A stretch of DNA of 64,000 nt, from positions 1-64,000 of the IMG/VR virus record IMGVR_UViG_3300042510_000354. The stretch is one strand, 5' to 3'. This DNA is from an uncultured virus (IMG/VR IMGVR_UViG_3300042510_000354). Its lineage: Duplodnaviria > Heunggongvirae > Uroviricota > Caudoviricetes. Positions 3 through 44,691 of the stretch are shown piece after piece; within the stretch, counting starts at the first letter, position 1, and each line of letters opens with the position of its first letter. The position numbers and the translations under genes are program-made. The notes under the pieces were generated by a model. That model was not told where the DNA came from, made no database searches, and was given only the letters and a program-made list of their open reading frames with translations.

Positions 3-506
3 TTATACCAGAGATACAGACCTAAAATCCAAACTAGCATTGAGTTCTATGACAAAGAAGCTAATAGGATGGTCCGTAACATTTACGAAGATCGAGCAGA
101 AGATGCTTCACTTCTAGGAAAATCAAGCCTGATGAGGGCAGGTATTGGCATGGGGGTTAATGGTAACCACATGAACGATGCTACTATTGTAAGAAGATTT
201 CATTTATGGGGTCGTAAAAATGGTATTGAAACCGCTACGATTCATGATGCTTTCTTCACCAACATTGGACAAGCAGCAAAGTCCAAGTATGCGCTTAGAG
301 AAATCTATGCGGATGCTCTTGAAGGTAACACAATAGAGAAAACATTACTGGCATTAAAAGCTGAAGGTATGTCTAACGAGACTTACAATAAGCTTCGCCA
401 AAAAGCTATTGAGGATGGCTTACTAAATCCCAAAAACAAGATTACGAGAAAAGAGATACTCGCTCCTATACCTAAAGGTATGGATTGGTATGGTATTGGA
501 CCGTAA
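3..506 (+). CDS. C-terminal part of a single-subunit (T7-family) DNA-directed RNA polymerase, 5'-truncated by the window edge
   Basis: Frame is open from base 3 (LYQRYRPKIQTSIEFY...). GVNGNHMNDAT...TIHDAFFT matches T7 RNAP APNFVHSQDGS...LIHDSFGT (motif C), preceded by a Q-x-Y specificity-loop-like segment. Confidence 0.75.
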   Translation, partial: LYQRYRPKIQTSIEFYDKEANRMVRNIYEDRAEDASLLGKSSLMRAGIGMGVNGNHMNDATIVRRFHLWGRKNGIETATIHDAFFTNIGQAAKSKYALREIYADALEGNTIEKTLLALKAEGMSNETYNKLRQKAIEDGLLNPKNKITRKEILAPIPKGMDWYGIGP

Positions 507-572: not shown

Positions 573-1268
573 ATGAAAGTAGATAAGTTCGGAAACAAAG
601 AGTTCCTCGATGATGGTACCACACTAAACCCAGAGTTTCAAGCCGATCAGGTTGGAGATCCAGGTGCAGGTACTAACAATAAAGATACAGAAGACATGAT
701 CAATCGTATGGTTGAAGAGCGTCTTTCTAAAATCAAACAAAGTTTAGATAAAGCTTATCAAGAACGTGACAATGCTGTTAAAGAGCGTGTTCGTTTAGAA
801 GATGAAGCTAAACAACGTAAGATGAAAGCTTTAGAGGATGAAGGTAAGCATAAAGAAGTTGCTGAGATGAAGCTCGCAGAACTCACTGAAAAGCTTGCGT
901 TAGCCGAAGGTAAAGTAACTGAACTCACCCGAGATGGTGCAGTTCGTAATGCATTAACTGGTCTTGATTTCCGTAATGACCGATCTGGCCAAATGGCTTA
1001 TCGTGATATTATCGATCAACTCATCCAAGATCCAGAGACTGGTGCATGGATTCACAAATCTGGTGTATCAATCAAGGATTTTGTAGGACAATATGTAAAG
1101 AATGAAGATAATTCTTTCCTATTTAAACCTAAATCTAATTCAGGGGGTGGTGGTAGCAATATGAACGGTACTCCCAAACTCGATCCCAATAAGAAGATTA
1201 CTGATATGACTACTGAAGAAGTGTTAGCACTTGCTGCAGGTGGTAAACTCGGTAACTTCACACTTTAA
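573..1268 (+). CDS. Capsid scaffolding protein
   Basis: Acidic coiled-coil protein with a GGG-linker C-terminal tail, directly upstream of the MCP. Confidence 0.75.
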   Translation: MKVDKFGNKEFLDDGTTLNPEFQADQVGDPGAGTNNKDTEDMINRMVEERLSKIKQSLDKAYQERDNAVKERVRLEDEAKQRKMKALEDEGKHKEVAEMKLAELTEKLALAEGKVTELTRDGAVRNALTGLDFRNDRSGQMAYRDIIDQLIQDPETGAWIHKSGVSIKDFVGQYVKNEDNSFLFKPKSNSGGGGSNMNGTPKLDPNKKITDMTTEEVLALAAGGKLGNFTL

Positions 1269-1288: not shown

Positions 1289-2383
1289 ATGATTAATCAT
1301 ACAATGTTCCAAAACGTAGCTATTGCTATTTCTGCATATGCTGATGAAATGTACACAAACGCCAAGAAGCTTAACAGCACTGGTATCGTTGGTACTGATG
1401 CCCGTATTGACCCAACAGGCGAGAGCTTCATTGGTCAAATGCGCTGGTACAAACCTCTAGCTGCCAACATTAACGTTGCTAGCTTATCTAGCGCTAATGA
1501 AGGCAACTACACTGATGTGTCAACTGAAATTGCTGACTACATCAAGACAGTCCGTACATTCGGTTCACAACAAGTTAACCTCCAGCAAATCGTTTCTCAA
1601 CAAGACGGTCTCTCTAAAATCGCTCGTGACTTCTCTGAAGTTCGTAGCCAAGACGAGTCTGACTCTATCGTATCTACACTCAAAGGTGTAGCTGCTTATG
1701 AAGTTTCTCGTGGTGCTGGTATTGTTGGCTATGACACAGACGCTGATGGTTCTACTGTTGGTAACTTCGTAGACATTAACGCTGCTGGTGTATTCGGTGC
1801 CGCAGCTGCTACTTCTGCTTCTGATCAGCGTAAGCTATTTGATGCTACCGCTATTGGTGCTGCCCGTGGTCAACGTCTATTCCAAGCTCTTGGTATGGCA
1901 TTCAAAGACTATGAGCCTGACTTTATGTACATGATCACTTCACCTGAAGTTTTAGCTGAATTACGTGCTGCTAACTTAGTAGACGTAACTACAGTTACTG
2001 ATGGCAACTTAACATTCCAAACCGTATTCGGTGGTAAGTTCCGTCTAATCCTCAGCCGTGTTGCTCAAGGTGACCTCTCAGCCTCTGCTAACGTAAATGA
2101 TCGTTCTACTAAGACTACATTCATTTGCAAGCCAGGCGCTATCAGCTTTACAAATATTGCTGTTCCTACACCTGTTGAAGTTGACCGCTCTGCTGCTTCC
2201 TACACTGGTGGTGGTTCTACATCTATCTGGTATCGTTATGGCTTCGTTGTACATCCAATGGGTTACGACTGGGCTGGCGCTACTAACGCTTTTGCTACCA
2301 ACACTGCTTTTGCAACTGCTGGTTCATGGGCACGTAAGATGAGTGCATTGAACTTAGGTATTCTACCTATTCTCCACGCTTAA
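1289..2383 (+). CDS. Major capsid protein
   Basis: 364 aa, AGGAG RBS, codon bias of a highly expressed gene, C-terminal VEVDR...GGG...HPMGY pattern, position after scaffold. Confidence 0.85.
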   Translation: MINHTMFQNVAIAISAYADEMYTNAKKLNSTGIVGTDARIDPTGESFIGQMRWYKPLAANINVASLSSANEGNYTDVSTEIADYIKTVRTFGSQQVNLQQIVSQQDGLSKIARDFSEVRSQDESDSIVSTLKGVAAYEVSRGAGIVGYDTDADGSTVGNFVDINAAGVFGAAAATSASDQRKLFDATAIGAARGQRLFQALGMAFKDYEPDFMYMITSPEVLAELRAANLVDVTTVTDGNLTFQTVFGGKFRLILSRVAQGDLSASANVNDRSTKTTFICKPGAISFTNIAVPTPVEVDRSAASYTGGGSTSIWYRYGFVVHPMGYDWAGATNAFATNTAFATAGSWARKMSALNLGILPILHA

Positions 2384-3657: not shown

Positions 3658-4209
3658 ATGGCACATATTACATCAATCGGAGCTGGTATTTTCTCAGCAA
3701 TGGCCGTAAATACAACTGAGATTACTGATCTCACAACTGTAGATACATTAGCAGAACTAGTAGCTAAGTTTGCTACTACTGGTTCTTTCACTGAAATCAA
3801 GAACGTTCGTGAATTCCCACAAATCGGTACACCAGCTAACATCGTTAACGTACCTGTTTATGGTCAAAAGACTTCTAGCCAGATTCAAGGCCAGTCTGAT
3901 TCACCTAACTTAGAGATTACTCTAAACTACATTCCTGCTGACTGGGCACCATCCTCAGCACTAGGCGCTTTAGTAGGTAATGGTAAGATCTATGCTTTCC
4001 AGTTCTCTATGCTAAATGCTAAACCAGCTGGTTTAAATACTACTGCAGGTTCTACTGGTCTAGGTTCTGTTGACAACTCTAACTTCTACTTCGTTGGTAA
4101 AATCGAAGCTCTATTAGTTAGCCCACAGTTAACAGATGCTAACCAAGCTACACTAACATTGTCTTCACAAGGCGGCTTCTTCGGTCCTGCGACTGTTGGT
4201 CTCGTCTAA
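3658..4209 (+). CDS. Major tail (tube) protein
   Basis: 183 aa, EIKNVREFPQIG...QIQGQSD..LEITLNY pattern, high-expression codon bias, synteny. Confidence 0.8.
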   Translation: MAHITSIGAGIFSAMAVNTTEITDLTTVDTLAELVAKFATTGSFTEIKNVREFPQIGTPANIVNVPVYGQKTSSQIQGQSDSPNLEITLNYIPADWAPSSALGALVGNGKIYAFQFSMLNAKPAGLNTTAGSTGLGSVDNSNFYFVGKIEALLVSPQLTDANQATLTLSSQGGFFGPATVGLV

Positions 4210-4217
4210 TGACAATT

Positions 4218-4239
4218 TGGGCTAGTTTCTAGTCCATTT
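4218..4239 (+). terminator. Small hairpin after the tail tube gene (possible weak terminator)
   Basis: TGGGCTAG-TTT-CTAGTCCA followed by TTT. Confidence 0.35.
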
Positions 4240-4263
4240 ACCAGGGGACGCTAAAGAGAGATC
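4235..4263 (+). promoter_or_regulatory. Putative phage-RNAP promoter, copy 1
   Basis: CATTTACCAGGGGACGCTAAAGAGAGATC is identical (29/29) to 26225-26253; intergenic; T7-like 17-nt core followed by a purine-rich start. Confidence 0.75.
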
Positions 4264-4308
4264 TGAGGCTCCCCTTGGTTGTATTTATAGTATATATTAA
4301 GGATAATT

Positions 4309-4554
4309 ATGATTGATAACAATCAAGATAAACCACCATTCAGTAAATCATTTGTTATGAAGACTACATTTCGTCATATGAGACGTAGTGTTGATATTAG
4401 TATTCGTAAATCATTTGAAAGATTTCAAGATTTTGACAAGAATAGTGAAGTAGGTAGAGAGATCATGGAAACATTATCTGTGTTACATACAGTACGTAAA
4501 GTACTCGATGACTTCCAAGAAAATAACAAACAGTTATTTAATGATAGTAAATAA
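4309..4554 (+). CDS. Hypothetical protein (81 aa)
   Basis: AAGGA RBS; first ORF after promoter copy 1. Confidence 0.65.
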   Translation: MIDNNQDKPPFSKSFVMKTTFRHMRRSVDISIRKSFERFQDFDKNSEVGREIMETLSVLHTVRKVLDDFQENNKQLFNDSK

Positions 4555-4570
4555 AAGTAAGGAATATAAA

Positions 4571-4867
4571 ATGAAACATCTCGTTGGAAAAGTAATGTCT
4601 AAGAAAACCAAATTTATGGGTGAAGACGTTACAATTAAGAAGCTTTCTGTATCTCAAGTTATGGAGATTCAAGAAAAGTCAAAAGCTGTTGGAGAAGATG
4701 AAAATGCAAGTATCCAACTATTACAGTATGTGATTGGTTGTTCCGTTGATGGAGCAGATCAGTTATCAACTGAAGATTTCAGTGCATTTCCTGTCGATGA
4801 GCTATCTCGTCTGTCTAATGAAGTACTCACATTCTCTGGATTGGGAAACGTGAATCAGGGCAAATAA
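4571..4867 (+). CDS. Tail assembly chaperone (gpG-like)
   Basis: AAGGA RBS before ATG 4571; lies between tube and TMP; ends just after the slippery site G GGA AAC. Confidence 0.8.
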   Translation: MKHLVGKVMSKKTKFMGEDVTIKKLSVSQVMEIQEKSKAVGEDENASIQLLQYVIGCSVDGADQLSTEDFSAFPVDELSRLSNEVLTFSGLGNVNQGK

Positions 4868-5220
4868 CATTAGATAAGGAAATGATAGAAGTCTATGACT
4901 TGGCATTTAAACTACATATGCCAGTTTATAGACTCCTTAAAGAAATGCCCTATGAAGAACTATTAGGTTGGTTCGAATATTTTAGAGAGAGACCTGTTGG
5001 TTGGCAAGATGACCAGCGTACTTATATGTTATTACAGGCACAAGGGGTTAAAGAAAAACCCGAGAGACTATTTGCTTCATTAGCTGCTATTAAAAGAGCT
5101 AATAATGAAGATGAGAGTAGACTTGCAAATTCTATTATTAGCTCAGGATTATTGAATAAACTTCAAATGGCTGCAGCAGATAATGGTATCCCATGGGAGG
5201 TTACAATTGATAAAAATTAA
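4843..5220 (+). CDS. Tail assembly chaperone gpT-like segment reached by -1 frameshift
   Basis: The -1 frame is open from GGGAAAC (4843-4849) into ORF 4882-5220 (LA..L...V..L...MPY.E...W..YF). Confidence 0.75.
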   Translation, partial: GKRESGQITLDKEMIEVYDLAFKLHMPVYRLLKEMPYEELLGWFEYFRERPVGWQDDQRTYMLLQAQGVKEKPERLFASLAAIKRANNEDESRLANSIISSGLLNKLQMAAADNGIPWEVTIDKN

Positions 5221-5569
5221 ACTTAATGTCAATAAGGCATTAGATAAAAAGATATCAAATGCATTAGAAGATTCAACTAACAAGATAATAGATAATGCTG
5301 TTGAAACTGCTATAGAAGAACTCAAAAGAGTTACTCCAAAAGATACAGGATATGCTGCAAGTAGATGGACTTCTTATAAACAAGAGTCATTCAAAATCTC
5401 CTTTTCACTATCAAATAAATTTTTGATTAGCTTAACCGAAAGTAGTCATTATGTTAATAATGATGCTGAGTATATTACATATTTAAATGCTGGATGGTCG
5501 AAACAGGCACCATCATATTTCATTGAACAAACTTTAATGAAAAGTGGTTTCGAACCCACTATAATATAA
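5207..5569 (+). CDS. HK97 gp10-like neck/tail completion protein
   Basis: TPKDTG.A..RW and N.AEYI.YLN.G.SKQAP motifs; GGGAGG RBS before TTG 5207. Confidence 0.7.
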   Translation: MIKIKLNVNKALDKKISNALEDSTNKIIDNAVETAIEELKRVTPKDTGYAASRWTSYKQESFKISFSLSNKFLISLTESSHYVNNDAEYITYLNAGWSKQAPSYFIEQTLMKSGFEPTII

Positions 5570-5575
5570 TTTTTT

Positions 5576-5625
5576 TGCCCTTTGATGCATCACACTATTC
5601 GTGATATATCTTAGGGCATTTTTTT
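5576..5625 (+). terminator. Long imperfect hairpin with T-tract upstream of the tape measure gene
   Basis: TGCCCT..GATGCATCAC-loop-GTGATATATC..AGGGCA followed by T7. Confidence 0.5.
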
Positions 5626-5636
5626 AAGGAGATTTT

Positions 5637-8600
5637 ATGTCAGATATCGCATTGAAAGTCACGTCTGACTCGTCACAAGCACAAAGGGACTTAGACAAAC
5701 TTTCTACATCAGTAGGTAAAATAGAAAAGACAACGACTTCCGCTACTAGAACATTAGCTGGTCTTGCAACTAGTGTTACAGCTGCATTTGCTGCATTCGG
5801 TGCAGTTAACAGTATTACTAGAGCTTCAGATACCTTCACAAATTTAGAGAATAGAATTGCTCTAGTTGTAGGTAGGACTAAAGAATTAGTTGTTGTACAA
5901 TCCCAGTTATTGGCTCTATCGGTAAAGACTAGAAGCTCATTGGAAGGTACAGTAGGTGTATTTAATAAATTTGGTTCTTCATTAAAGAATGCAGGTGCAT
6001 CTACAAAACAACTATTACAAGCTACTGAGAACGTACAAAAGGCAGTTACTATTTCTGGTACTGCTGGTGAGTCTGCAAGAGCCGCTTTAATTCAGTTAGG
6101 GCAAGGTCTTGCCTCTGGACAATTACGTGGCGAGGAATTAAACTCAGTTCTAGAACAAACCCCTAGAATTGCACAGGCTATTGCTGATGGGATTGGTTCT
6201 TCTATTGGAGAACTAAGAAAGCTAGCTGAAGAGGGTAGATTAACAAGTGATGTAGTATTTAAAGCATTACTAAGTCAAACAGATAAATTAAATAGTGAAT
6301 TTGAAACACTAGCTCCTACTTTTGAACAATCAATTATTAGACTAAAAGATTCCGTAAATCTTTTGTTATCTGAGATATCTAAATCAAGTGGACTTTCACA
6401 AATACTTGGTGGAAACATAAATAGAATTTCAATATACATAACAAATTTAGCAGAAGTTGCTGATGTATACTTTACCATTTTAAGTTCAAGATTTGGTCAA
6501 ACAGTTAGAGATGCAAAGTTAGTTATTAATGCTTTTGGAAATTTATTCTCTGCCGTAGGTAGAAATATTAGTGCTATCGTACCTGTTATTCGTACATTTA
6601 CAACGCCATTAACAGTGTTGGCAAACTCATTTTTCTTTGAAAGACTAAGAATCTCTTTCTTAGCCTTTTATGATAGTGTATTTGAATTTAGAAAATTAGT
6701 TAGAGGTGTAGTTGAGCAATTAGGTCTATTCGTAGCCTTTGGTGATACTAGAACTTCAAGAACTATTGGTGATATTTTTAATTCAAAATCAGTAGTAGAA
6801 TTTACAAGTAATATAAATAAACTTGCAAAGGGTTTAGATCCAAATAATTTCTTTGGATTCTTAGCTTTCTCCGTAGGATTTAGAGACTTCTTTGTAACTC
6901 CTCTTTACCAAGGTGTAGCCGTACTAAAAACATTTGGTGCTGCATTAGGTATTGCTAGTAATCCACTTATTGAATTTTCTAATATACGTTTTGATAGGTT
7001 TCTTGAATTAGGTCTACAATCATTACAGATCTTAAGCTATACTATTCAGAGATTCTTTGCACCTGCAGTAGTACTCTCGTTAACTTATATTGCAGAATTT
7101 ACAACTAATTTAATCTATCTTACTAGGAGTTTACTTGGTTTAAACCCTAGTCTATTAGAAACATTTGCTATACTCCAAGTCAAAGGTGTTGCTGGTCTCA
7201 AATTACTAGTGTCTAATTTGCTAGGTTTAGATGTAGCAATTGGCTCATTATACGGATTTGTTACTGCATTCGCAGAAGTAAAAGCTGTTATTCAAAATAC
7301 TGTTATTGCTATTGTAGGCTATATGCTCTATATGAGCAGCAAAATTGAAGATAGTATTTTTACCAAGTTAAGTAAAGTAGAAGGTTTTATACGAGACTTT
7401 GCTACTAAAATTAAGGGTTACTTTTTTGATATATACGATAAAGTAGTAGGTAATTCTTACTGGCCAGATATGGTTGATGGTGTATTACGTTGGGCTGATA
7501 AGTTATACACAGAAGGCACAACAAAGATAGACGCATTTACAAAGAAAGTTAAAGCTTCTTTCTCCGATTTGAAAAATAGTACTAAAGATCTTTTTACTAA
7601 AATTACAGCAAAAGGATTAGACACAAGAGATACAATTGGTAACAGTAGCATTGGTAGTACTGTTAAAGATACTCTAAAAGATACTGTAGCTAAAGTAAAG
7701 CTTAAGATAGAAAAGATAGATGTTAGGGAAATGATCTCTAGCCTACCACTTAAAGAACTTGGCGCAGTATTCAAGAATATTGCCGATGTGTTTGTATTAG
7801 CTGCTATTGTTGCATTAGTAGCTCCTGCTACATTTGCCGCATTCTTTTCGGGTGCTGCAATATTAATCAAAGCAGCATTAATCCCAAAAATAGGAGAAGC
7901 ATTATACGAAGCATTTGACGCTAATATATTTAAAGAAATTGGTGAAACTGCAGGATCTATTATTGGGTTCTATCTAAGAGAAGCTATAGAATCTATTCCT
8001 GAATTACTAGGTCAATTGGTAACATTTGCTGATGCATTTGGAAAAGCATTCCTAGAACAATTTGGTATTATTGGTTCTGCTATTTCTAGTCTTTTCTCTT
8101 TCTTTAGTGTAGGAGATTCAGGCTTACTAGGTACTATTTTAGTTGGAGCAGGTATTGCTACTATACTTAGTAAAGTATCTGTTGTTAAAGAATTTGTAAG
8201 CGGCTTTCTAGCTTTTGTTGCTGGATCAGCAGGCTCTAGTGCAAACAGTGGTGGATTATTAGGACAAGCTTTATTAGGTGCTAACTTTAAATATTTAGTT
8301 GCAGGTGTATCTCTAATATTCTCTGGATTCTCAGATCATGTGAGTATGGCTGTAGCGCTAGCTGCTGGCATTCCATTAGTTACTCTTGCAATGCTTGGTG
8401 AGGATGTTGCAGGTAAACTTATTAAAGATTCTCTCGCATCTGTGTTTAAATTCTTTATTACGCAATCCTTAGCAGCCGCAGCTACTATATCTAAAACAAA
8501 ATTATTTACTAGTTTATTTGGAGATATCAAAGCTAGTGAAATAACTAGCAAGATTAATAAAGTAAAAGACATTGTAGGTAAAGTTCTTGGCAATATTAAT

Positions 8601-11600
8601 AACGGCCAAAATAGAGAAGACTACACTAAAGGTAAAATAAGTATTACAGATTTCCTATTCGGTAAAGAAGAAGGAGATTCAATAAAGAAAAAGGTAGATG
8701 AAAAAGTAAAGTCTGCCTCTAATACTATTAAAGAAACTGTTTCTAAAGCCGCAGATAAGCTCAAAGATCTTGGTAAGAGTAAAAGTTTACTTGATACTTC
8801 TCTTCTTGGTAAAGAAGGAGTTGATCCAGCGTTAAGAGCTAAAGTTTATACAGATAACATTAAATCTGTTTTAAATAAGATGAATGTAGATGTTGAAGGA
8901 ATGGCTGGACCTGAAGGCTTACTTGGTAAACTATTTAAAGGTAAAAAGGGATTTATTGCTGGTGCTTTAATTTCTATTTTTGCATTGTTTACTAGTGCAG
9001 CAAATGCCGCTGAAGCTCAGACAACTAGTGTTACTTCAAACATATTTGATTCTATCCTTTCCTTTGTAGGTGACTATGGTATTTATGCTTTGTTATTACC
9101 ACCAGCTGGTTGGGCATTCTTTGGTGGAGCACTTAAGAATGTAGTTACTGCCTTTAGTATTATGGGTAATGCTGGACTCAAAGCCCTTTGGGGTGTAGGT
9201 ATGGCTATCAATTATGCAGGTATTGCAACTGGAGTACTTGCAGGTTCTTTACAATTACTTACTGGTGGATGGATAGGTTTCTTTGCTAAAACAGCAGCTG
9301 GTCTTAAAGCGTTAATGAGTGGTATTTTAGTTATAGGTGGTATTCTAGGTGGTGTAGTAGGTAGTATAATATATGCTATAGGAGTTGTTATTAAGGGTAT
9401 TGCTCTTATAGTCACATCAGTAGCAGGCATTATTACTATTGTAGCTACTCTTGGTATTGGTGCTATTGCAATATGGTTATTTGGTGAAGGTGATGGCTTC
9501 ATGGCTAAACTTGATGATGTCATTGAGAAGCTTGCAAAGTTATTCCGTATGAAACCATCTGGTCAAAAGCAATTAGAGGCATTATTACCTAAGTCTGAAT
9601 TGGGCGGTCAAGCATTAGATTTCTCAGGAAAAATTAGTGGTATTAATTATAGCAAATTAACTGAAGGTCAATCTAAATCATTAAATAGTTTAGCTACTAG
9701 ACTCTCTGAAGTTATTAAGAGAGCCAAAGAAGAAGAAGAAGACTTAGGTTCTGTTACAGCTGAAACTACAGCAGACCTACAGAAACTTAGAGATTTATTT
9801 GATAAGAAAGCTGATAAGTACGCATTTAATAGTAGCATGGATGATTTAGCTACCTCTATGAAGGCCGCTGAAATTCAAGCAGGTTCTTTATTCGCATTTA
9901 TGAATAGAGATCTAAATAGACAAGTACCATTCTTTTCAAGTTTCTCTATTGAGAACTTTGTATTACCTTTTGAAAAGATAATTGATAAGTTTAGTAAGTT
10001 TAATGATTCTCGTGCTAGAGACGTAAACAAAGAACTTTCTTCTAATGTAGATGTATTTAAAGAGATTGACAAATATCTAAAGCCAGAAGAAATACAAATG
10101 TCAGTAATGGCATTTAATAGACTTAATAATGCTATTGGTAATCTAACTGGATTTAGTGGAGTAATCTCAAGACTATTTGGTGGGTTTCCAAAGGCAGAGT
10201 TAGAGTTAGAACTTGCTAGAAAACAAGTTAACAAACTAAGTGCTGAGTTTAAGAAATTAGCTGAAGAACGTGAGGCTGTTGGTAATTACCAGACAAGCCT
10301 AACTGATGCACAAAAAGCATTAGCTGGACTAGAGAAATTTCAAGTAGGTGCTGGTATTAAAGTTGAGTTAAAAGATCTATTTGGTTTTAGTGACCCTAAA
10401 CAGGTAACTGAATTAACTAGTGAATTAGAAGCACTGTTCAAACAATTAAAAGAAAAAGCTAAAGGTAGTGATGAAGCATTAGCTATTCAAGTACAAATTG
10501 ATGCTAAAACAGAAAATCTAAAGTTTGAGATTGAAGAAGCTAAAATTGCTGGTTCATTAAAACCTAGACTAGAATCTTTATTTAAGCGTGCTGGTGCAAA
10601 TATAAATGTTGAAGAACTATTTAAATTTGCTAGTTTGTCTTCTATTACAGGTTTTGGAGATAAATTATTTGTTTTAAAGAATAAGATGGATGCTGCTAGG
10701 CAACAAATAGCCTTAGCTGGAAATGATGTAACTAAATTAGCTGAAGCTTTCAAAAATTCTAGAGATGCTGCTGAAGAATTTAATAATGAGCTTGATAGAT
10801 TAACTGGAAATGAAGGTTTGTCAAAAAGATTATCTACACTTGGTGTAAACCTTAGTAGAGAAGTTATTGATTCCTTTGGACCTAAAGCTGCTGAAAGACT
10901 TAAAAAGTTCCAAGACCAACTTAAAGGTTTTGATGCAATTAGTATTGATCCTAATGCCTCCGATAGACAAAAGCAAAATGCTGCAAGGCAAGCTATCCAA
11001 TTAAAGAAAATAATTCAAGAAGAATTTCAGAATAGAGATTTCTTTGAAAATTTTAGTTTCCAAATTGGTAAGACAAATTTATCAGTTGATTTAATGAAAG
11101 CCTTAATGCTTTCTCCTTCTGAATCTAAACAAGTAATAAAGTTATTACAGCAAAGCTTAAAAGATAAGAATTTACTTAAAAATTTAGCAAGAGATGCCAG
11201 TGGATTACCCGCAGATCCAAAAGCAGCAAAAGAAATCTCTGATCGTATTGTAGGCACTCAAGCTGAGTATGACCTAATAATGAGAGACAAAGGCAAAAAT
11301 GTTCTTGAGGTATTTGCAGATAGTATTTCTAAGAGTGGATCTAAGATTGATATTAATGAGTTATTTACTTCTGGATTAGCTACAAAAGATATCCTTGATG
11401 CACAGGGTTTTACTACTCAAATAAGAAAACTACAAGACCAAAAAGATAAGTTTTTATTAACTAGACGTGACGACCCTAATGGTTTAACAACTCTTGATAT
11501 TGGAATGATTGCTGAATTTGATAAACAAATTAAGGAATTAAACAAGCAAAGAGATTCTGCGTTAGATCGTAACTTAGTTACTAAAATAGAGTCATTAGCT

Positions 11601-19940: not shown

Positions 19941-22900
19941 GTTATGGTTTTAAATTTTTTAATGATTCATCAGAATTAGTATTAGATAATGAATTAGTAA
20001 AACCTTGGTTTGCTGGAAGAGCTACTTTTGTTAGTGCAGAAGTTTCTTCTGACATTCCAAGTTTTTCATTTACTCATGCTGATGGAATTACTCGTAATTA
20101 TGTAGTGTATAGGATTACGTATACACCACCAACTGTAAGTAATGGAGTGTTCTATATTTCATTACCTCCAGACAGTATTAATAATAAAGCTTATAATGTT
20201 GCAAATCCCTTTTATAGTGGTAATGAAAATATTTATGTATACGCTGCTGCTAATACTGATTATCTTCCTGTATCTTCAGATATACCTGAAATATATTGTT
20301 TTAGTCTTGGACAAATAACAACTGCTGGTCTAGGTTATGGAGCTAGACTATTTAATAGTTCTAATCAATGTGTATTTGATACAACTAAGTCTCACCTTAA
20401 AATAGATCCTGCAAGTTCACAATTCTTTGATTATTATGTAATACCTAATGGTAATCAGCAGAATAGCGTGCCACCAACAGACTACGCTTGTTATTTCTTA
20501 CCAAATCTAGAAACTAACAAGTTAACATATATTGATAGTTCAAATTTTAAAAGAGAAAAATATCTTTGTTTTTACAATCAAAATGGAAGCTATTTAACTT
20601 CTTGGTTTCCAAAAATATTAGATGAGAATAAAACAGGTACTTTACCATTTACAGGTTCTAGGTTTTTTAATAACTCTACTAGATATAGTAGTGTAAAACA
20701 AATATTACCAACAAGTATAGATCATAATCCGTTATTTTCTAATGCTTTAAGTTACAACCCTGGCTATAATGGTGGTGGTTTCCCTGCCGCTAGTTATGTA
20801 TTAACTCTTAATCCAACTATTACTCAAGAAGGTTATGTTAGCCCCATACAATGTAATGTAACTACAACAAATGTCCCTACTGGTGGACAACTAAGATATA
20901 CTCTATCTGGTACTGGAGTTACTGCATCTGATTTTGGAGATGGGTTAACAAATACTTTTGTTGTTAATAATAATACAGCAAGCTTTTTTATATATGCTGC
21001 ATCTGATAGTATTTTTGAACAAACTGAAACAGTAACAATGACTATCACCTCTGTAGGTGGAACTGCATTAGTTGGGATACCACAATCTTTTAGTCTTAAA
21101 AATTCAAGTTTTTATGATTTAAAAATTACTCCAAATGTAAGTAGTATAAATGAAGGTGAGTCTTTTACAGTTACTCTAACCACATTAGAAACTTCAACTT
21201 CACCTAGAATAGTAAATTATACGTTAACACAAATACCAACTGCAGTAGGGGCTATAGACCAAAACTTCGATAGTAATGATTGGGTATCTCTTGTTACGCT
21301 AGGTAGTGGTGCGACTGTAGCCTCTAACAGATTTACTTTACCTGCTAATGTATACCCACCCAGCACTTCAAGGACATTTAATGCTAAACTAGATTTTAGA
21401 GTAGATGGTCCAAAGAAACTTCGATTATCTATTGATGATAATCCTTCTGTATTTGTTGATATGTTAATTAATGATACTTCATTAGAGTATAGTTGGTCTA
21501 TCTCAGGTCCAAGTACTATTAACGAAGGTATTGAATATACATATAATGTAACTACGGCAGCTCCAACTGGTACTAGAGCAATTATTGGATTAACATCTAT
21601 TACAGGTGCATCTGAAGATGATATCGCTCAAATCAATGGAGTAAATTATGTTTCAGGTGATACTTATTACGTTACTACTACAAATGGATCTGGATCATTT
21701 ACTCTTAAATTTAAAGCAGATTTAACTACAGAAGGTAATGAAGCATTTACAATATTCTTAGATAAGGACATGCCAATACCAAGAACTAGGTTAGCAGATT
21801 TAGGGTTTAATGTAACACTAGTAGATACCTCATTAACTCCAATTAATTGGTCTTTTTCTAAAGTAACAGGTAACCCTACTACTGCATTAGTTAGAGAGGG
21901 TACTAGCCTAGTTGTTAGAGTTCAAAGTACTAATGTACCTGCATATCCTTATACTATATATTATAGAATTGCTAGTGGAAATGGTACATCAGATTCTGAT
22001 ACTAATTTCTTAACTAATGCTGTTTTTCCATTTAATATTACATCTACAGATCAACAAGTATTATTTGATATAAAAGAAGATAACTTTTCAGAGGGTACAG
22101 AAGCTTTTCAAATAACTTTTTATAGAGATGCTAGTGGTACTGATATTATTACAGGACTAGAATGGCAAATTATAGATGCTATTTCCGTATCTAGAAGTGA
22201 GGGGTTTGTTGTAGAAGGTCAGACTCAAACACTTACTATAACACCTAATTATTTAAGTTATCCTTATACTGTTTATGGAGAGATAACTGGTGGAAATGCT
22301 AATTTAACCAGTGCTGATTTTATTAGTGGTACTTTATTAACTGAAACAATACTCTATGATAATACTCCAGTTACTTTACAGTTTACTGGTGTAGAAGATT
22401 ATACTTATGAAGGTATATTTGGAGAAGTTGTATTCTTTGATATGTATTCAGACTCAGGAAGAACAATACCTATTGGTAATTCTATATCTTGGTCAATGGG
22501 GGATCCTCAATTTGTGTTTTCTAGATCTTATGCTTCTGTAGATGAGGGATCAAATCAAATAATCACAATTAGTACAAATGCAGTATTACCAAAGTTAATA
22601 TTTGGTAAAATGACTGGTACTGACATTACAAATTCAGACTTTAGCTCTCCTCCTAATTCTACGATATTTAATTGGAATATAACTGCTACTGGACAAAGTA
22701 TCGGCCTTACAATGGCTCCAGATTTATTTACAGAAACTAATCCAGAAACAGTTACTCTAACCTTCTATGATGATACACAATTAACTCGCCAAGTTGGTAA
22801 TACAGTAACTTGGGATATTGCAGACACTTCTAAAACACCACCTCCCTCTTGGTTATTCACAAGAGATCCAAATACAGCTACTGTAGATGAAGGGGTATCT

Positions 22901-26224: not shown

Positions 26225-26253
26225 CATTTACCAGGGGACGCTAAAGAGAGATC
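26225..26253 (+). promoter_or_regulatory. Putative phage-RNAP promoter, copy 2
   Basis: Identical to 4235-4263; intergenic. Confidence 0.75.
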
Positions 26254-31048: not shown

Positions 31049-31058
31049 GGAGAAAACA

Positions 31059-31385
31059 ATGGCAAACAATTTTATTAATGCTGTTGCATCTAATATTGGA
31101 ACTACTGAGGTTGTAATTTATACAGCTCCTACTAATACCAAAGCAATTCTTATTGGATGTAATTTAGCAAACAAAACAGGTAGTTTTCTTCCTGTTAGTC
31201 TTATCTTACGTAAGTCTACTGGCGATGCATATATCGTAAAAGATAAACGTGTAGGTAACGGAGATAACGAAGAAGTAATGAAGGGTAATAAAATTATACT
31301 ATTACCTGGCGATCAATTAGTATCTATCAGTGTTGATAACAATGCTTTTGACGCTATTGCTTCAATTCTAGCAGGAGTAGCATAA
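31059..31385 (+). CDS. Small virion structural protein
   Basis: AGGAG RBS; YTAP...IG.NLAN...K.IL..GD pattern. Confidence 0.55.
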   Translation: MANNFINAVASNIGTTEVVIYTAPTNTKAILIGCNLANKTGSFLPVSLILRKSTGDAYIVKDKRVGNGDNEEVMKGNKIILLPGDQLVSISVDNNAFDAIASILAGVA

Positions 31386-31615
31386 TGGCTGGCTTTTATG
31401 AGGGTACAGATTTAGCTGACAAGACTTTTTATGGGTTTAGATTTAATCCAGACACTGGTAACTTAGATATTGAGATCATCAACGATGGCTCTCCAGTAGT
31501 ATTACCAGATGAAGGTATTATCGATAAATTCGACTATAGCCAATGGGTATGGTCCCGTGATACGTTAAAGTTTCAGTGGGGTAACAATGGACATTTACAG
31601 GTGAAATTCTTATGA
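31385..31615 (+). CDS. Hypothetical structural protein
   Basis: Translationally coupled ORF within the fibre cluster. Confidence 0.5.
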   Translation: MAGFYEGTDLADKTFYGFRFNPDTGNLDIEIINDGSPVVLPDEGIIDKFDYSQWVWSRDTLKFQWGNNGHLQVKFL

Positions 31616-35652: not shown

Positions 35653-35664
35653 GGAAAATAAATT

Positions 35665-36399: not shown

Positions 36400-36413
36400 T
36401 TTAGGAGTAAATT

Positions 36414-36701: not shown

Positions 36702-36712
36702 GGAGAGTTGTT

Positions 36713-37750: not shown

Positions 37751-37758
37751 GGAATATT

Positions 37759-39375: not shown

Positions 39376-39382
39376 GTAAAAT

Positions 39383-39409: not shown

Positions 39410-39423
39410 ATTAAGGAGTTTAG

Positions 39424-40627: not shown

Positions 40628-40628
40628 T

Positions 40629-40719: not shown

Positions 40720-40745
40720 GGTCACTCGAAAGGGTGGCCTTTTTT
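40720..40745 (+). terminator. Rho-independent terminator ending the late/AMG region
   Basis: GGTCACTC-GAAA-GGGTGGCC-TTTTTT. Confidence 0.85.
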
Positions 40746-41086: not shown

Positions 41087-41380
41087 ATGAGTAGCAATTC
41101 AAATCGAATTAAAGAGCTTGATAAGGAAAAATCTATGCCTAAGTACTTATTGTTGAATCCACTTTATGGAGATAACTTTGGAGTTACTGCACAAGAGGTA
41201 ATTGAATCGTTAGAAGAGTTTGGATTAACTTATATATTCTCAAATGATACTAAAGGTATACCTGCAATCTATGCAACAAGTACATCTAAAAAGTTAATTG
41301 AAAGAATGTGTACTGAAGTTGAACTCGATGGTTCTATTATTGAATTCACTTCTATATATGATCAGAAAATTGAGGATTAA
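41087..41380 (+). CDS. Hypothetical protein
   Basis: ORF with RBS; may start at the internal ATG after AAGGA. Confidence 0.55.
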   Translation: MSSNSNRIKELDKEKSMPKYLLLNPLYGDNFGVTAQEVIESLEEFGLTYIFSNDTKGIPAIYATSTSKKLIERMCTEVELDGSIIEFTSIYDQKIED

Positions 41381-41382
41381 AA

Positions 41383-41637
41383 ATGCCAAGATTGACTCTA
41401 AAATCAGGTGACTATACTATTGAAGCTATTCAAGAGAATTTATTTGATTCAGTTCAAGTAACTGTCTATGATGACTTCTTACAGAAAGTTGTACCTCCTT
41501 CTTTATATGATGTTAACTCAGCATATATGGTTGGAGAAACTGTAGCTTCGGTTATTACAGAATCTGCTGAAGACTTTGGTAGGCTCTTTAAAGCAATTGA
41601 AGATTTAGTTTTTGTAGATAAAAAACTTGGAGTTTAA
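41383..41637 (+). CDS. Hypothetical protein
   Basis: GAGGA RBS, tight gene packing. Confidence 0.6.
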   Translation: MPRLTLKSGDYTIEAIQENLFDSVQVTVYDDFLQKVVPPSLYDVNSAYMVGETVASVITESAEDFGRLFKAIEDLVFVDKKLGV

Positions 41638-41872
41638 AATGTGTACTAAATGTCCACCTGTGTATTCTAGTGTTCGAATTGCTGATGAGGAAGGTTATGT
41701 CTACCAAGTCAGCAAAGAGATCGTTAATTACATCAAAGTTCGTTATGAACCACATAGTTTAGACTTCTTTGATAAAGTTGGTCAAGAACTAGATTTATGG
41801 AAAGTTAATCCGTTAGCTCACATAAACCAAAGATTTAAGCTAGTAGGCCATGTTAATACAATGAGGAAGTAA
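41627..41872 (+). CDS. Hypothetical protein
   Basis: Packed ORF; probable start is the ATG after GGAG. Confidence 0.55.
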   Translation: MEFKMCTKCPPVYSSVRIADEEGYVYQVSKEIVNYIKVRYEPHSLDFFDKVGQELDLWKVNPLAHINQRFKLVGHVNTMRK

Positions 41873-42006
41873 TGAGCCTCTTTGTAATATTTTTGCTTAT
41901 TATGTTTGTACTATTTGTAGTGGCTAGACCATTATTTTTTATAGTACTAATTGCTTATATCTTTTTAATTTTATTCAGTGGTCCCTTTCCAAAACCTTTT
42001 ATTTAA
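41872..42006 (+). CDS. Small very hydrophobic membrane protein (44 aa)
   Basis: TAATG coupling, GAGGA RBS; MSLFVIFLLIMFVLFVVARPLFF... Confidence 0.5.
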   Translation: MSLFVIFLLIMFVLFVVARPLFFIVLIAYIFLILFSGPFPKPFI

Positions 42007-42018
42007 TGGAGTATTAAA

Positions 42019-42228
42019 ATGGCTTTAACAACAGTTGGTTACTTTCTTGGTTGGTTGCTTGGCTTCTTAGCTGCACTTCTTACCTTGAGTTTTGCTAAAG
42101 AAGTTTTAGTTATCGGTCTATCTTTCTTTATAGCTAATAAAGTAGTTACATGGTATCAAGATAGAAAAAATGGTGTAGTTGAAGTAGAGGCTACTGAACT
42201 ACCAATGGACGCTAAATTAGCTTCCTAA
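42019..42228 (+). CDS. Small two-TM membrane protein
   Basis: GGAG RBS, two hydrophobic segments. Confidence 0.6.
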   Translation: MALTTVGYFLGWLLGFLAALLTLSFAKEVLVIGLSFFIANKVVTWYQDRKNGVVEVEATELPMDAKLAS

Positions 42229-42230
42229 AA

Positions 42231-42262
42231 AGACCCCCGAGGCTAAATGCCTTGGGGTTCTT
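42231..42262 (+). terminator. Hairpin/terminator upstream of the RNAP gene
   Basis: CCCCGAGGC-TAAAT-GCCTTGGGG followed by TTCTT. Confidence 0.6.
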
Positions 42263-42300
42263 CTGAATTTTTTAATCAAAAACAGGATATAATAATAATA

Positions 42301-42429
42301 ATGACAAAAGCAATCCTATTTGAAGTTTTAGTTCTTTTACTAGAGACCTTTATTATCTGGCTCTATAAAAAGTTAAACAACAAGGAAACAACACAATCAA
42401 ATCATCAAACAGCTTTCGAATTTGCCTAA
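42301..42429 (+). CDS. Small hydrophobic peptide coupled to the RNAP gene
   Basis: AGGA upstream; its stop abuts the RNAP ATG (TAAATG). Confidence 0.4.
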   Translation: MTKAILFEVLVLLLETFIIWLYKKLNNKETTQSNHQTAFEFA

Positions 42430-44598
42430 ATGACCGTTCTAGATAAATTAGTTAATGATATTAAGCTACGTCAGGCTACGTTGCGTTCAGATAGAAATAT
42501 CTATACTCACTACTTGAAAGATGTAGATCCAAAGACACTAATAGACATCTCATATCCTCATGTATTACGTGGACTTGAGAGACAAGGTACTTTAGTAGAC
42601 ATTATTGCTACTATTGGCAGGAGAATTCGACAGACTCTTGAATTACCTAATGACACAATCTTTGATGCACAAGTCGGCTGGTTTGTGTGTATTGCTTATA
42701 TTGAATGTAATGTTTTATCTTTTAAATTAAAGTATACATACAAGAATGGCAAGAAGAGTAAGTACCAAGCTTATTTCTTTCAAGTTAAAGATTGGAAATC
42801 AATTAAAGACTTATGGAGTCTAATTGATCAAACTAAAGTTGATATCTTTCCCATGAGAGAAGCCCCATGCCCATGGGATTCTGCTCATAATAATTTAGGT
42901 GTTCCTATTATTAAGAAAGGTCACTCTACAGCATTAGCACAATTTAAGAATAATGATAAAGAAATACTTTACAATGTTCTAAATAAATTACAAGCTACAG
43001 GATGGCGCATTAACAAAGATGTATTTAAAGTTTATCAACATTTTCTTCATAAGGAAAATTCAGTTAGTCCATTTAAATTACATTCTGAAATTGATGAAGA
43101 GAAAAAGAAATCTCTGCTGATTGAAGCTGAGGCTATTGAACAACTAGCTTCAAACCATTTAGATAATACCTTTTATCATATGTATAACTTCGATTTTCGT
43201 GGTCGTGTATATGTAAATACAGCATTCTTGCATGAGCAATCTAGTGATAATGCTAAAGGTTTACTCTTGTTAGATCAACCAGCACCACTTGGAGAAAATG
43301 GTTTATTCTGGTTAAAAGTACATACCTCTAACTCTTTTGGTAATGACAAAGTTACACTAAAACAAAGAGCAGAGTTTGTAGATGAGAATATTAATTTATT
43401 CTTATCTTATGCAGAGAAACCAACTATTAACCAAGGTTGGATTGATACTGATGCCCCATTTTCCTTCTTAGCTGCTTGTTATGAGTTAAAGAAGATTAAG
43501 GAGTGGCTAATGGAAGGAAATAAGTTAGAAGAATATGAATGTTCACTTCCTGTTTACATTGATGGTTCTAATAACGGAGTTCAACATCTAGTAGCTATGT
43601 CTCAAGATGAAGATATTGCCCCATTAGTAAATTTAGTTCCACAAGAGCTCCCTGGTGATGTCTACATGTATATTGCAAAATATGTATGGGAACATTTACA
43701 AGAGATGGCAGACAAGCTAACACCTGAAGAAAGAGGTCAGTTTGACTCTGTTTATGGTAAAGCTAAAGAACTACAAAAAGCCTATTTTGATGCACCTGAA
43801 AAGACAGAGCAAAAAGCGTTAGCCTATGCTGCTGCCCAAGAATGGCGTAATCAAAATAGAGCAATACGAGAAAAATTATTTCCTGTTTACTGGCTTAAAA
43901 TTGATAACCCTAAAGATCAACGTAAAGTAGTAAAGAGAAATGTGATGACACTCGGTTACGGTGGTACTGCATACGGCATGGGTCAACAGATTATTGATGA
44001 CACTCGTGATATGTCTGAGTATCTTCGTGACAAAGAACACCTCTGGGGTGCGCTATTAGGTGATCTGGTATTTGAGACTTGTTATGAGAAACTCAAAGGA
44101 CCAGCCACTATGTTGCGTATGTTTCAAGATCTTGCACAAAGATCTAATGAGAAAGAAGTGTTTCTAAAATGGACTACACCTGTAACTAACTTCCCAGTTG
44201 TTCAGGCATATCGTAAGCCATCTATTGTACGTACTAAGTTGAAGTACGGAGAAGAAGAATTAAAGATTCAACTTCAAACTTGGGAGGAAACAACTATTAA
44301 TAAAGATTCCCAAAGAACAGGTGCTGCACCAAACATTGTTCATAGCTTTGATGCTGCTCACCTAACAATGACTGTTGTATCTGCGCCCTATGAGATGACT
44401 GTTGTTCATGATTCTTTTGGTACCTTACCAGGACGAATGGATGATTTGTTTTATAGAGTAAGAGAACAGTTTGTTGAGTTTTACAAAAGTAAACCTCTTG
44501 AAAAATTGCTTGCTGAACTCGACTGTAAAGACCTTATTCCTGAAAGGGGTAATCTAGATGTCGGTCAGATTGTGTATTCTGATTATGCTTTTTGTTAA
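42430..44598 (+). CDS. T7-like single-subunit DNA-directed RNA polymerase (722 aa)
   Basis: DFRGRVY, motif A DGSNNGVQH, motif B RKVVKRNVMTLGYG, APNIVHSFDA, motif C VHDSFGT, C-terminal YAFC. Confidence 0.95.
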   Translation: MTVLDKLVNDIKLRQATLRSDRNIYTHYLKDVDPKTLIDISYPHVLRGLERQGTLVDIIATIGRRIRQTLELPNDTIFDAQVGWFVCIAYIECNVLSFKLKYTYKNGKKSKYQAYFFQVKDWKSIKDLWSLIDQTKVDIFPMREAPCPWDSAHNNLGVPIIKKGHSTALAQFKNNDKEILYNVLNKLQATGWRINKDVFKVYQHFLHKENSVSPFKLHSEIDEEKKKSLLIEAEAIEQLASNHLDNTFYHMYNFDFRGRVYVNTAFLHEQSSDNAKGLLLLDQPAPLGENGLFWLKVHTSNSFGNDKVTLKQRAEFVDENINLFLSYAEKPTINQGWIDTDAPFSFLAACYELKKIKEWLMEGNKLEEYECSLPVYIDGSNNGVQHLVAMSQDEDIAPLVNLVPQELPGDVYMYIAKYVWEHLQEMADKLTPEERGQFDSVYGKAKELQKAYFDAPEKTEQKALAYAAAQEWRNQNRAIREKLFPVYWLKIDNPKDQRKVVKRNVMTLGYGGTAYGMGQQIIDDTRDMSEYLRDKEHLWGALLGDLVFETCYEKLKGPATMLRMFQDLAQRSNEKEVFLKWTTPVTNFPVVQAYRKPSIVRTKLKYGEEELKIQLQTWEETTINKDSQRTGAAPNIVHSFDAAHLTMTVVSAPYEMTVVHDSFGTLPGRMDDLFYRVREQFVEFYKSKPLEKLLAELDCKDLIPERGNLDVGQIVYSDYAFC

Positions 44599-44600
44599 GT

Positions 44601-44620
44601 TTTACCAGGGTACGCTAAAG
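44601..44620 (+). promoter_or_regulatory. Putative phage-RNAP promoter, copy 3
   Basis: TTTACCAGGGTACGCTAAAG matches copies 1/2 at 19/20; directly after the RNAP stop. Confidence 0.7.
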
Positions 44621-44691
44621 CACTAACGTATGCAAATTCAATTGTATACTAAATATTAAAAATGAAATTATAATTAAGGAAACTAAAACCT

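Follow-up and report, generated by a model that had tools for sequence, protein, structure and literature searches.

RNA polymerases (RNAPs) carried in the virion are known from N4-like podoviruses, where a right-hand enzyme forms part of a giant protein, and from jumbo and crAss-like phages and Thermus phage P23-45, where the enzymes are of the two-barrel type (P23-45 gp96, crAss-like gp66 and the phiKZ/AR9 type are examples). In the portions of the literature consulted, N4-like virion RNAPs are said to occur only in N4-like phages, and MuF proteins are described as head components of portal-terminase phages that are fused to effectors likely delivered into the host cell (Iyer 2017, PMC5512222). 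This MuF cargo is thought to be delivered with the DNA (Iyer 2017, PMC5512222), and one such fusion, a MuF-RelA_SpoT toxin, appears in the part of a meeting report that was available (PMC11806420). For P23-45, the sections of the report at hand present gp96 as a tape-measure-fused two-barrel virion RNAP and gp64 as a non-virion RNAP (PMC10770324). Here we analyse 64,000 nucleotides (the window) of an uncultured member of the Caudoviricetes, positions 1 to 64,000 of IMG/VR record IMGVR_UViG_3300042510_000354. The frame at the very start of the window almost certainly belongs to a fusion between a MuF head protein and a T7-type RNAP, and a free-standing T7-like RNAP, RNAP2, is encoded about 42 kb downstream (Table 1).

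A MuF-polymerase fusion gene cut by the record edge

The frame in question is open from base 3, reaches its stop codon at 504-506 and encodes 167 amino acids (aa), which take in some of the fingers, the hairpin of the specificity loop, motif C of the palm and the C-terminal tail. A first-pass annotation of the window had described it as an RNAP-like frame ending 66 bp before a scaffold gene, and both the spacing and the identity of the scaffold gene (phrog_206) were verified. Taken alone, the 167-aa fragment is a borderline case: it scores 15.2 bits with PF00940 against a cut-off of 22 (E 0.01), matches phrog_414 among the PHROGs at 2e-4 and, by BLASTP, shares 28% identity over 54 residues with the 722-aa RNAP2 (E 0.001). 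Our certainty about its identity as a polymerase therefore comes from the full-length gene in relatives.

Three related contigs (L005, L006 and L007) carry a 1,472-aa open reading frame (ORF), the last 167 aa of which are 100% identical to the window fragment. This protein, P0005, was used as the reference for the full-length product. Against Pfam, P0005 matched both Phage_Mu_F (PF04233; residues 141-239, 42.9 bits, cut-off 29.6) and RNA_pol (PF00940; residues 1053-1436, 29.4 bits, cut-off 22), and against PHROGs it matched head morphogenesis (phrog_241; residues 52-349, 3e-53) and RNA polymerase (residues 903-1158, 3e-22). The gene order in L007 is PhoH, portal (4180-5793; phrog_145, 1e-57), fusion gene (6086-10504), scaffold and major head protein. 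The earlier guess of a MuF-fused polymerase occupying the slot before the scaffold gene was thus borne out in relatives with an identical C-terminus, by the MuF domain as well as by the portal-to-scaffold position. On these sequence comparisons, window 3-506 almost certainly forms the 3' terminus of a gene some 4.4 kb long. Its product would have three parts: a MuF/SPP1-gp7 head-morphogenesis domain at the N-terminus, then a helical linker, and lastly an entire right-hand RNAP of the T7 type (residues ~555-1472). The N-terminal 560 residues of P0005 were modelled with a mean predicted local distance difference test (pLDDT) score of 85.2; compared with 48,161 PDB representatives, this model gave generic helical-bundle matches only (best Z 10.9, to a designed repeat protein), and an informative fold was found for neither the MuF part nor the linker.

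Base 1 of the window is also base 1 of the 68,417-bp linear IMG/VR record, and the frame is open at the window edge because the record is truncated there. At its other end the record carries a cell-wall hydrolase gene followed by 207 bases without an open frame. A circular continuation, with the N-terminus encoded at that end, was rejected, since no open frame runs off the 3' end. The last 1.6 kb of the record align at 96% identity to positions 42285-43902 of G001, an 80,335-bp contig of a near-identical phage, and the first bases of the window align at about position 29358 of the same contig. The two record ends are therefore 12.9 kb apart on G001, and the record, although labelled '100% complete', is short of some 12.9 kb. 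On G001 the gap (29358-42285) holds, in order, small ORFs, the large terminase gene (phrog_2, 6e-33), lysis-type genes, PhoH, portal (phrog_145, 1e-57) and the first 1,305 codons of the fusion gene. Related genomes with terminal repeats measure 76.9-79.0 kb.

The fusion is not peculiar to this phage. A tblastn search of 50,697 phage records with the fragment returned four matches, to three records of the roseophages DSS3_VP1 and DSS3_PM1 and to 'EBPR siphovirus 1'. The roseophage match covers all 167 residues at 58.7% identity (E 2e-62) and, in DSS3_VP1 (Naomviridae, Noahvirus), falls at the C-terminal end of gp108. This protein of 1,463 aa carries the annotation 'head morphogenesis' and scores 27.1 bits with RNA_pol and 51.7 bits with Phage_Mu_F. 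Its gene is flanked by portal and tRNA-Asn and by scaffold and major head protein genes. Of 216 stretches picked out by pattern in IMG/VR, 211 code for a relative; from these, 80 loci were retained. An uninterrupted ORF of 1,451-1,483 aa was found in 39 of the 42 loci uncut by a contig edge; the other three are split, two of them by a group I intron recognized with Rfam. A search of 5.8 billion proteins gave at least 275 matching protein clusters at E up to 0.001. Among the 120 homologues listed, 94 carry both Pfam labels, 20 the MuF label only and six the RNA_pol label only, all six being shorter than 1,260 aa; those with names are called 'SPP1 gp7 family head morphogenesis protein' or 'minor capsid protein'. 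Among 1.84 billion cluster representatives there were 129 matches at E up to 0.001, and in full-length representatives down to 23% identity the polymerase still lies behind about 640 N-terminal residues.

The breaks in the split genes fall exactly at motif B (L045 8686-8952; L078 4999-5251; L004, which is EBPR siphovirus 1, 6357-7037). Two of these loci contain a group I intron of family RF00028 (86-88 bits) and the EBPR siphovirus 1 locus an HNH endonuclease ORF, and many database fragments of the gene start or stop at this same point.

Residues, fold and descent of the polymerase

HMMER aligned the fragment to residues 723-841 of T7 RNAP, and individual residues were mapped on a MAFFT alignment with T7 gene 1 from NC_001604 (Table 1). 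The strings to which the first-pass annotation had pointed (NGNHMNDA, IHDAF, both loop strings, WYGIGP and YAFC) are all present. NGNHMNDA and IHDAF were correctly recognized as the equivalents of T7 sequences, with T7 H784, D787, H811 and D812 falling on H56, D59, H81 and D82 of the fragment, and the segment likened to a specificity loop is a predicted β-hairpin (fragment aa 8-17 and 22-31) that aligns to the T7 specificity loop. All 28 family sequences aligned, which reach down to 18% identity, agree at seven residues of P0005 (D1069, K1134, K1137, Y1145, G1146, D1364 and D1387). Among them are both catalytic Asp residues, D1069 and D1387, of which the window had offered only the second; the functional roles of the corresponding T7 residues are well known. 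T7 R627 is replaced by Q1133, which adjoins the invariant K1134, and the fusion protein ends in DWYGIGP, with a tail six residues longer and the T7-type FAFA end missing.

A profile built from the 28 family members matched T7 RNAP (5.4e-17), the mitochondrial RNAPs of yeast (1.3e-10) and human (chains, about 1e-6) and N4 RNAPII (1.7e-5); no N4 virion RNAP chain was matched at E up to 1. The AlphaFold model of P0005 residues 400-1472 had a mean pLDDT of 81.7 and a predicted template-modelling (pTM) score of 0.76, and its top Foldseek matches were T7 RNAP (4.6e-20) and human mitochondrial RNAP (1.2e-19). With VIA-align, the model superimposed on T7 RNAP with Z 33.2 and a root-mean-square deviation of 3.9 Å over 548 aligned residues (model 157-1071 against T7 37-882), on yeast mitochondrial RNAP with Z 29.9 and on the N4 mini-virion RNAP (mini-vRNAP) with Z 19.5. 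From this alignment the polymerase core therefore extends over residues ~555-1472 and includes a T7-like N-terminal domain. The double-psi β-barrel core was not matched, the top structural matches all being right-hand T7 or mitochondrial RNAPs. A search of BFVD gave a single close structure, that of a 1,463-aa protein (54% identity, E 1.2e-97), by length and identity probably gp108 of DSS3_VP1 or DSS3_PM1; T7-like RNAPs followed at 1e-21 and N4-type virion RNAPs lower still. Retrieval of the full ORF through the relatives, together with the structural comparison, thus brought to light the MuF domain, motifs A and B and a match to the T7 RNAP fold. The annotation of a second single-subunit RNAP in the head module was correct, in that sequence profile, predicted fold and conserved catalytic residues all mark a genuine T7-type polymerase, and the enzyme is very likely to be active.

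RNAP2, which had been reported as a complete T7-like RNAP at 42430, was confirmed as such by its match to PF00940. Its orthologue in DSS3_VP1 and DSS3_PM1 is 50% identical and annotated 'RNA polymerase', and RNAP2 was found in all five related genomes searched, these having been chosen through the fusion gene. P0005 and RNAP2 are colinear and share 21% identity over 631 residues (E 6e-10). As the earlier annotation had it, the two polymerases differ in their specificity loops and at their C-termini, where WYGIGP stands against a YAFC that aligns to T7 FAFA; they are deep paralogues. In a quick IQ-TREE phylogeny (20 rows, 854 columns; support by the Shimodaira-Hasegawa-like approximate likelihood ratio test), ten MuF-fused enzymes formed one clade (98), and four RNAP2s formed another (96). 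The latter was nested in a group (99) that also includes T7, MmP1, Bordetella BB8 and Pelagibacter phage Aegir, and to this group N4 gp16 was sister (90). The root was put on the N4 mini-vRNAP by choice, and the rooting is not evidence because that branch is very long (3.93). The MuF-fused enzymes thus stand as a clade of their own, apart from both the RNAP2/T7 group and the N4 virion RNAP. A recent duplication of RNAP2 as the origin of the fused enzyme was rejected on the basis of the 21% identity over 631 aa and the separate clades. The fusion does not belong to the N4-type virion RNAPs, though it most likely functions in the same way. In one related genome (G004), RNAP2 is itself interrupted, with some 780 nt inserted at residue 519 (G004:C1:8023-8801).

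Promoters, probable packaging and a proposed start of infection

Two classes of promoter-like elements were found. The first, class L, is the only 11-mer of the genome enriched in non-coding sequence, with five sites, all non-coding and all on the + strand. The motif, TACCAGGGGACGCTAAAGAGAG, occurs at record positions 4239, 26229, 67703 and 68311 with at most one mismatch in the 20-nt core. Six relatives retain the site that corresponds to 4241, and the 58.6 kb of DSS3_VP1 that were examined contain eight class-L-like sites with the consensus atAGGGTGCGTTAAAGAG. The layout is like that of the promoters in the T7 record, a specific block ending in TAAA and then GAGAGA, as against taatacgactcactata and then GGAGA in T7. 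The first promoter of T7's own polymerase, phi1.1A, lies 26 nt after gene 1, which compares with the class L copy that follows RNAP2.

The second, class E, is a bipartite element situated before the early genes (Table 1). Upstream of the early cluster there is one copy in this record, one in the related genome G002, two in G003, three in G004 and three in DSS3_VP1. Two of the G004 copies contain the identical 18-mer, though the RNAP2 of that phage is only 50-60% identical. Both at 35.8 and at 36.3 kb in DSS3_VP1, where the early region begins, the element takes the form AAAAAGTGAGAAAACTAAGGCATCTATAATGA, its upstream box identical and its 5-nt spacing unchanged. Both classes share the T7 layout of a specific block, an A/T-rich end and a purine-rich start. 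On sequence grounds, this arrangement of promoters fits a two-polymerase relay, in which an entry polymerase would read class E to give RNAP2, which in turn would read class L.

A degenerate class E copy, GGTGCTCCTGTAATAGAAGAGAATCTTAAA, lies at 37794-37827, before the cargo cluster described below and in a possibly coding stretch. When the two apparent 450-nt 'intergenic' regions were aligned, they had little in common beyond the class E-like stretch, and 37751-38201 looks coding.

Several features suggest that the fusion protein travels in the virion. G001 has no class L promoter between the one after the lysin gene, at the record end, and the fusion gene, which therefore belongs to the terminase-portal-head transcription unit. 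The MuF domain of P0005 has two Cys (C212 and C235), and residues 236-1472 have none. No Cys follows the MuF motif, over about 1,215 residues, in 108 of 111 full-length homologues, and the remaining three have a single one. RNAP2 has eight Cys in 722 aa, and the background in window ORFs of at least 150 aa, a crude average, is 0.73%. A similar division is seen in N4: the virion RNAP gp50 has no Cys in 3,500 aa, and neither do gp51 (644 aa) and gp52 (150 aa), the annotated virion proteins beside it, whereas the cytoplasmic enzymes do (4 and 9 in the RNAPII subunits, 12 in the DNA polymerase and 8 in the primase). Given the MuF domain, the position of the gene, its placement in a late operon and the cysteine-free signature, it is likely that the fusion is packaged. 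That the polymerase is also ejected and reads the early genes is a step we favour by a smaller measure.

We propose the following sequence of events, which as a whole we consider somewhat more probable than its alternatives taken together. The fusion gene would be expressed from the late packaging-head operon, in which the observed gene order is class L promoter, terminase, portal, fusion gene, scaffold and major head protein. Through its MuF domain, as the MuF family suggests, the protein would then enter the procapsid at the portal in a few copies, and on infection it would exit with the DNA. Judging from the layout, the fused polymerase would initiate at the single class E promoter and transcribe the small early genes together with the RNAP2 gene. 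By analogy with T7, RNAP2 would finally read the repeated class L promoters for the middle and late genes, that of the fusion protein included.

Several observations weigh against this proposal. A perfect TATAAT is present in nine of the 11 class E copies (the full copy of the window, that of G002, both of G003, two of three in G004 and all three in DSS3_VP1; the exceptions are TATAAC in the copy G004c and TGTAAT in the degenerate window copy), so that class E is possibly a host sigma70-type promoter with a weak -35 element. Promoter classes are matched to polymerases on the basis of layout only, and the cysteine-free signature is correlative. This record does not include the first 1,305 residues of the protein, and for this phage the fusion is deduced from contigs that are 96-100% identical in the flanks. 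The missing FAFA end and the replacement of R627 by Gln mean that catalysis may differ in detail. Four RNA-library runs contained 5-29% of the early-region words; their contigs are patchy over 39.1-46.0 kb (23 of 30 bins in X21) and absent over 37.0-39.1 kb, transcript starts are unreadable from contigs, and DNA carry-over is possible. Lastly, neither the main text of Rihtman 2021 (PMC8323127), supplements to which may hold annotation, nor the portion consulted of a 2025 Adv Sci paper on dU-DNA (deoxyuridine-containing DNA) enzymes (PMC12697855) takes up such a protein: the former is without mention of RNA polymerase, RNAP, MuF, head morphogenesis or minor head, the latter without mention of RNA polymerase, transcription or virion.

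The TATAAT leads to the best-surviving alternative, which we regard as unlikely: the host RNAP would start the infection at class E, and a packaged MuF-RNAP would have some other early role, such as pulling in the genome by transcription or making replication primers. T7 does use the host RNAP for its early genes, gene 1 among them, and its record carries an annotated E. coli promoter ahead of gene 1; moreover, the third class E copy of DSS3_VP1, at 67.8 kb, is without the upstream box. However, the GTGAGA box of class E is 13 nt from the TATAAT, not 16-18, and there is no TG extension. Conservation also runs past the TATAAT into a purine-rich AGAAGAA, as in T7-type promoters. A bipartite element of about 36 nt is, in addition, common to a freshwater phage of 35% GC and a roseophage of 48% GC, the proteins of which are only 50-58% identical. 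Finally, the early region (37.6-45.6 kb) has fewer sigma70-like sites than shuffled sequence, not more: 18 were found against 34.8 +/- 5.7 in shuffles.

Less probable still, in our view, is that the fusion is not delivered at all but acts in the producing cell, as a late-gene polymerase or tethered to the portal in packaging, perhaps with the RNAP part cleaved off, and that RNAP2 or the host RNAP does the early work. The late operon would suit such a role, as would two promoter classes for which the reader of each is not directly assigned. A polymerase made only late, however, cannot explain a promoter class that is confined to the start of the early region, and class L sites set in directly behind the RNAP2 gene, in the way that T7's own promoters follow gene 1. 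The cysteine-free signature is like that of the ejected N4 proteins and unlike that of cytoplasmic phage polymerases, and the available part of the MuF survey describes MuF fusions as delivered cargo (PMC5512222). It is very improbable that the polymerase part has decayed into a non-catalytic relic, kept only as a structural or DNA-binding head protein: annotators do name only a head protein, FAFA and R627 are lost, and in the most distant members the DxRGR motif is degenerate and HDAF has become YDGF, but both catalytic Asp, the Lys, Tyr and Gly of motif B and D1364 are invariant down to 18% identity, the whole T7 fold, N-terminal domain and specificity hairpin included, is predicted with high confidence, and relatives carry group I introns and an HNH endonuclease gene exactly at motif B, conserved sites of essential enzymes being the usual location of such elements.

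Returning to delivery of the fusion polymerase, we also put forward a broader proposal, held tentatively and a little short of an even balance. The MuF-fused enzymes would constitute a third deep lineage of T7-type RNAPs, apart from the T7-like and the N4 virion enzymes, delivered from the capsids of long-tailed phages by a toxin-type MuF module and reading a conserved bipartite early promoter of about 36 nt, AAAAGTGAGAAAA-N5-G[CT]ATCTATAAT-purines, to switch on a T7-like RNAP. The whole family, marine dU-DNA roseophages and freshwater phages alike, would then be independent of the host RNAP, an independence that possibly permits the thymine-free DNA of Naomviridae.

Table 1. Features of the window, and residues of the fusion polymerase equivalent to those of T7 RNAP
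Feature	Position	Strand	Remarks
MuF-fused single-subunit RNA polymerase, C-terminal 167 aa + stop	3..506	+	Residues 1306-1472 of P0005
Specificity-loop-equivalent β-hairpin, window aa 8-31, KIQTSIEFYD...RMVRNIYEDR	24..95	+	Model strands 914-923, 928-937; T7 ~739 to 770
H56 and D59 of NGNHMND	168..179	+	Aligned to T7 H784, D787; D59 family-invariant
Motif C, H81-D82 of IHDAF	243..248	+	Aligned to T7 H811-D812; Asp invariant 28/28
Head scaffolding protein gene	573..1268	+	phrog_206, 2.8e-10; starts 66 nt after the stop of the fragment
Major head protein gene	1289..2383	+	phrog_247, 1e-26
Class L promoter-like motif TACCAGGGGACGCTAAAGAGAG in tail-gene region	4239..4260	+	Non-coding-enriched motif
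Class L promoter-like motif, second exact copy	26229..26250	+	Non-coding-enriched motif
Terminator-like hairpin	40720..40739	+	End of the variable cargo region, directly ahead of the early promoter
Class E (early) promoter-like element AAAAGTGAGAAAA-N5-GTATCTATAATAGAAGAA	40752..40787	+	Only full copy in record
Small early ORFs between class E element and RNAP2 gene	41087..42426	+	First ORF 300 nt after class E
Free-standing T7-like RNAP, 722 aa, RNAP2	42430..44598	+	PF00940, 1.3e-80
Class L promoter-like motif, weak copy, core CCAGGGTACGCTAAAGCACT at 44605	44603..44624	+	Starts 5 nt after RNAP2 stop
T7 D421/R423/R425	P0005 D926/R928/R930		
T7 D537 (motif A)	P0005 D1069		
T7 K631 (motif B)	P0005 K1137		
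T7 Y639/G640 (motif B)	P0005 Y1145/G1146		
T7 H784	P0005 H1361		Window H56
T7 D787	P0005 D1364		Window D59
T7 H811/D812 (motif C)	P0005 H1386/D1387		Window H81/D82

Other parts of the genome are noted here for completeness. Of the 85 ORFs called over the whole record, 82 are on the + strand. The small early ORFs gave no family matches in profile searches. Upstream of the early promoter, at 38202-40627, lies a cargo cluster of two 2-oxoglutarate (2OG)-Fe(II) oxygenases, a heme oxygenase and a ferredoxin-dependent bilin reductase, which is kept in G001 and replaced by other genes in G002 and G003. Tandem tRNA-Met (CAT) and tRNA-Arg (TCT) genes are found at 45229-45380, where the RNA-library contigs pile up, probably through conserved tRNA sequence of other organisms. 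Two genes belong to the dCMP-deaminase family (window 50783-51193 and record 64245-64550), the first being 41% identical to a DSS3_VP1 ORF. With about 12.9 kb of the genome missing, the record has no YfbR-like HD hydrolase (PF12917), and a Pfam scan of 80 ORFs gave no thymidylate synthase. A ClpP-family protease gene (58121-58843; PF00574, 6e-34) stands among DNA-metabolism genes, far from the head module; its product could be a prohead protease or have a host-directed function. The giant tail/fibre genes at 21700-25900 and 27400-29600 contain internal coding repeats, with units of about 330 nt and Ala/Ser/Thr-rich repeats of 21-nt periodicity. A direct-repeat search of the whole window returned only such coding repeats of tail-fibre genes, and G001 ends inside this repeat region, probably at an assembly break.

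Comparison with known systems

If our proposal is true, a T7-type polymerase mounted on the MuF head-protein module of a siphovirus is a new delivery architecture, and the MuF 'cargo slot' carries the phage's own transcription machinery and not only toxins. The fusion is widespread in metagenomes, and the phage studied here is abundant in ordinary lake metagenomes, yet in public annotation the protein is hidden as a 'head morphogenesis protein'. We did not find a description of a MuF-RNAP fusion in the literature searched, which included the available portions of PMC5512222, PMC10770324, PMC11806420 and bioRxiv 10.1101/2025.10.29.685362; supplements on DSS3_VP1 might annotate it. The cultured members DSS3_VP1 and DSS3_PM1 grow on the model bacterium Ruegeria pomeroyi DSS-3, which makes the proposal testable now, and the two conserved promoter motifs provide defined templates. 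The MuF-RNAP may also explain how transcription starts in a dU-DNA phage, and the two polymerases with their promoters would, if the relay is real, offer biotechnology two new orthogonal pairs.

The dU-DNA of DSS3_VP1 and DSS3_PM1 has been shown experimentally. Their gp108, named 'head morphogenesis' or 'minor head protein-like' in GenBank, is a direct orthologue of the fusion, with the same architecture and neighbours, the same RNAP2 at 50% identity and homologous class E and class L motifs. The phages differ in setting: the roseophages are marine, with 48% GC and dU-DNA, whereas the phage of the window comes from lake water and has 35% GC.

Like MuF/SPP1 gp7 proteins and the MuF-fused effectors and toxins, the fusion has an N-terminal Phage_Mu_F domain, a gene right after the portal gene and a variable, enzymatic C-terminal cargo. 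Here, however, the cargo is a 918-aa RNA polymerase for the phage's own gene expression, not a toxin or a host-modifying enzyme. With T7 RNAP (gene 1 of Autographiviridae) the fused enzyme shares the whole fold, the DxRGR motif, motifs A, B and C, the equivalents of H784 and D787 and the specificity hairpin. It differs in being only about 15% identical, in lying behind about 555 residues of MuF domain and linker, in lacking FAFA and cysteines and in being encoded in the head module rather than the early region; in the tree, the true T7-like enzyme of this phage is RNAP2 and not the fusion.

The nearest published parallel in a long-tailed phage is P23-45. In the sections of the report available (PMC10770324), it too combines an RNAP fused to a structural virion protein with a second, free RNAP among the first transcribed genes and two promoter motifs. 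There, however, the RNAPs are of the two-barrel (cellular) type and the carrier is the tape measure, whereas here both belong to the right-hand T7 type and the carrier is a head protein.

For the probable working of the MuF-RNAP system, the closest match by analogy is N4 (Schitoviridae), with its virion RNAP gp50 and its RNAPII gp15/gp16. Common to both are a right-hand single-subunit RNAP inside a larger protein of the virion (probably so in the present phage), a second and smaller T7-like RNAP among the early genes, and the absence of cysteines from the protein that is, or here would be, delivered but not from the cytoplasmic polymerases. On the other hand, gp50 is a 3,500-aa protein of a podovirus, whereas the family described here has 1,451-1,483 aa (1,472 in the MuF fusion of P0005) and the window encodes a 2,442-aa tape measure and siphovirus tail genes of a long-tailed phage. 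The fusion polymerase is structurally nearer to T7 RNAP than to the N4 mini-vRNAP (Z 33.2 and 19.5). The late genes of N4 use the host RNAP, whereas in the present phage the class L motif also precedes late genes.

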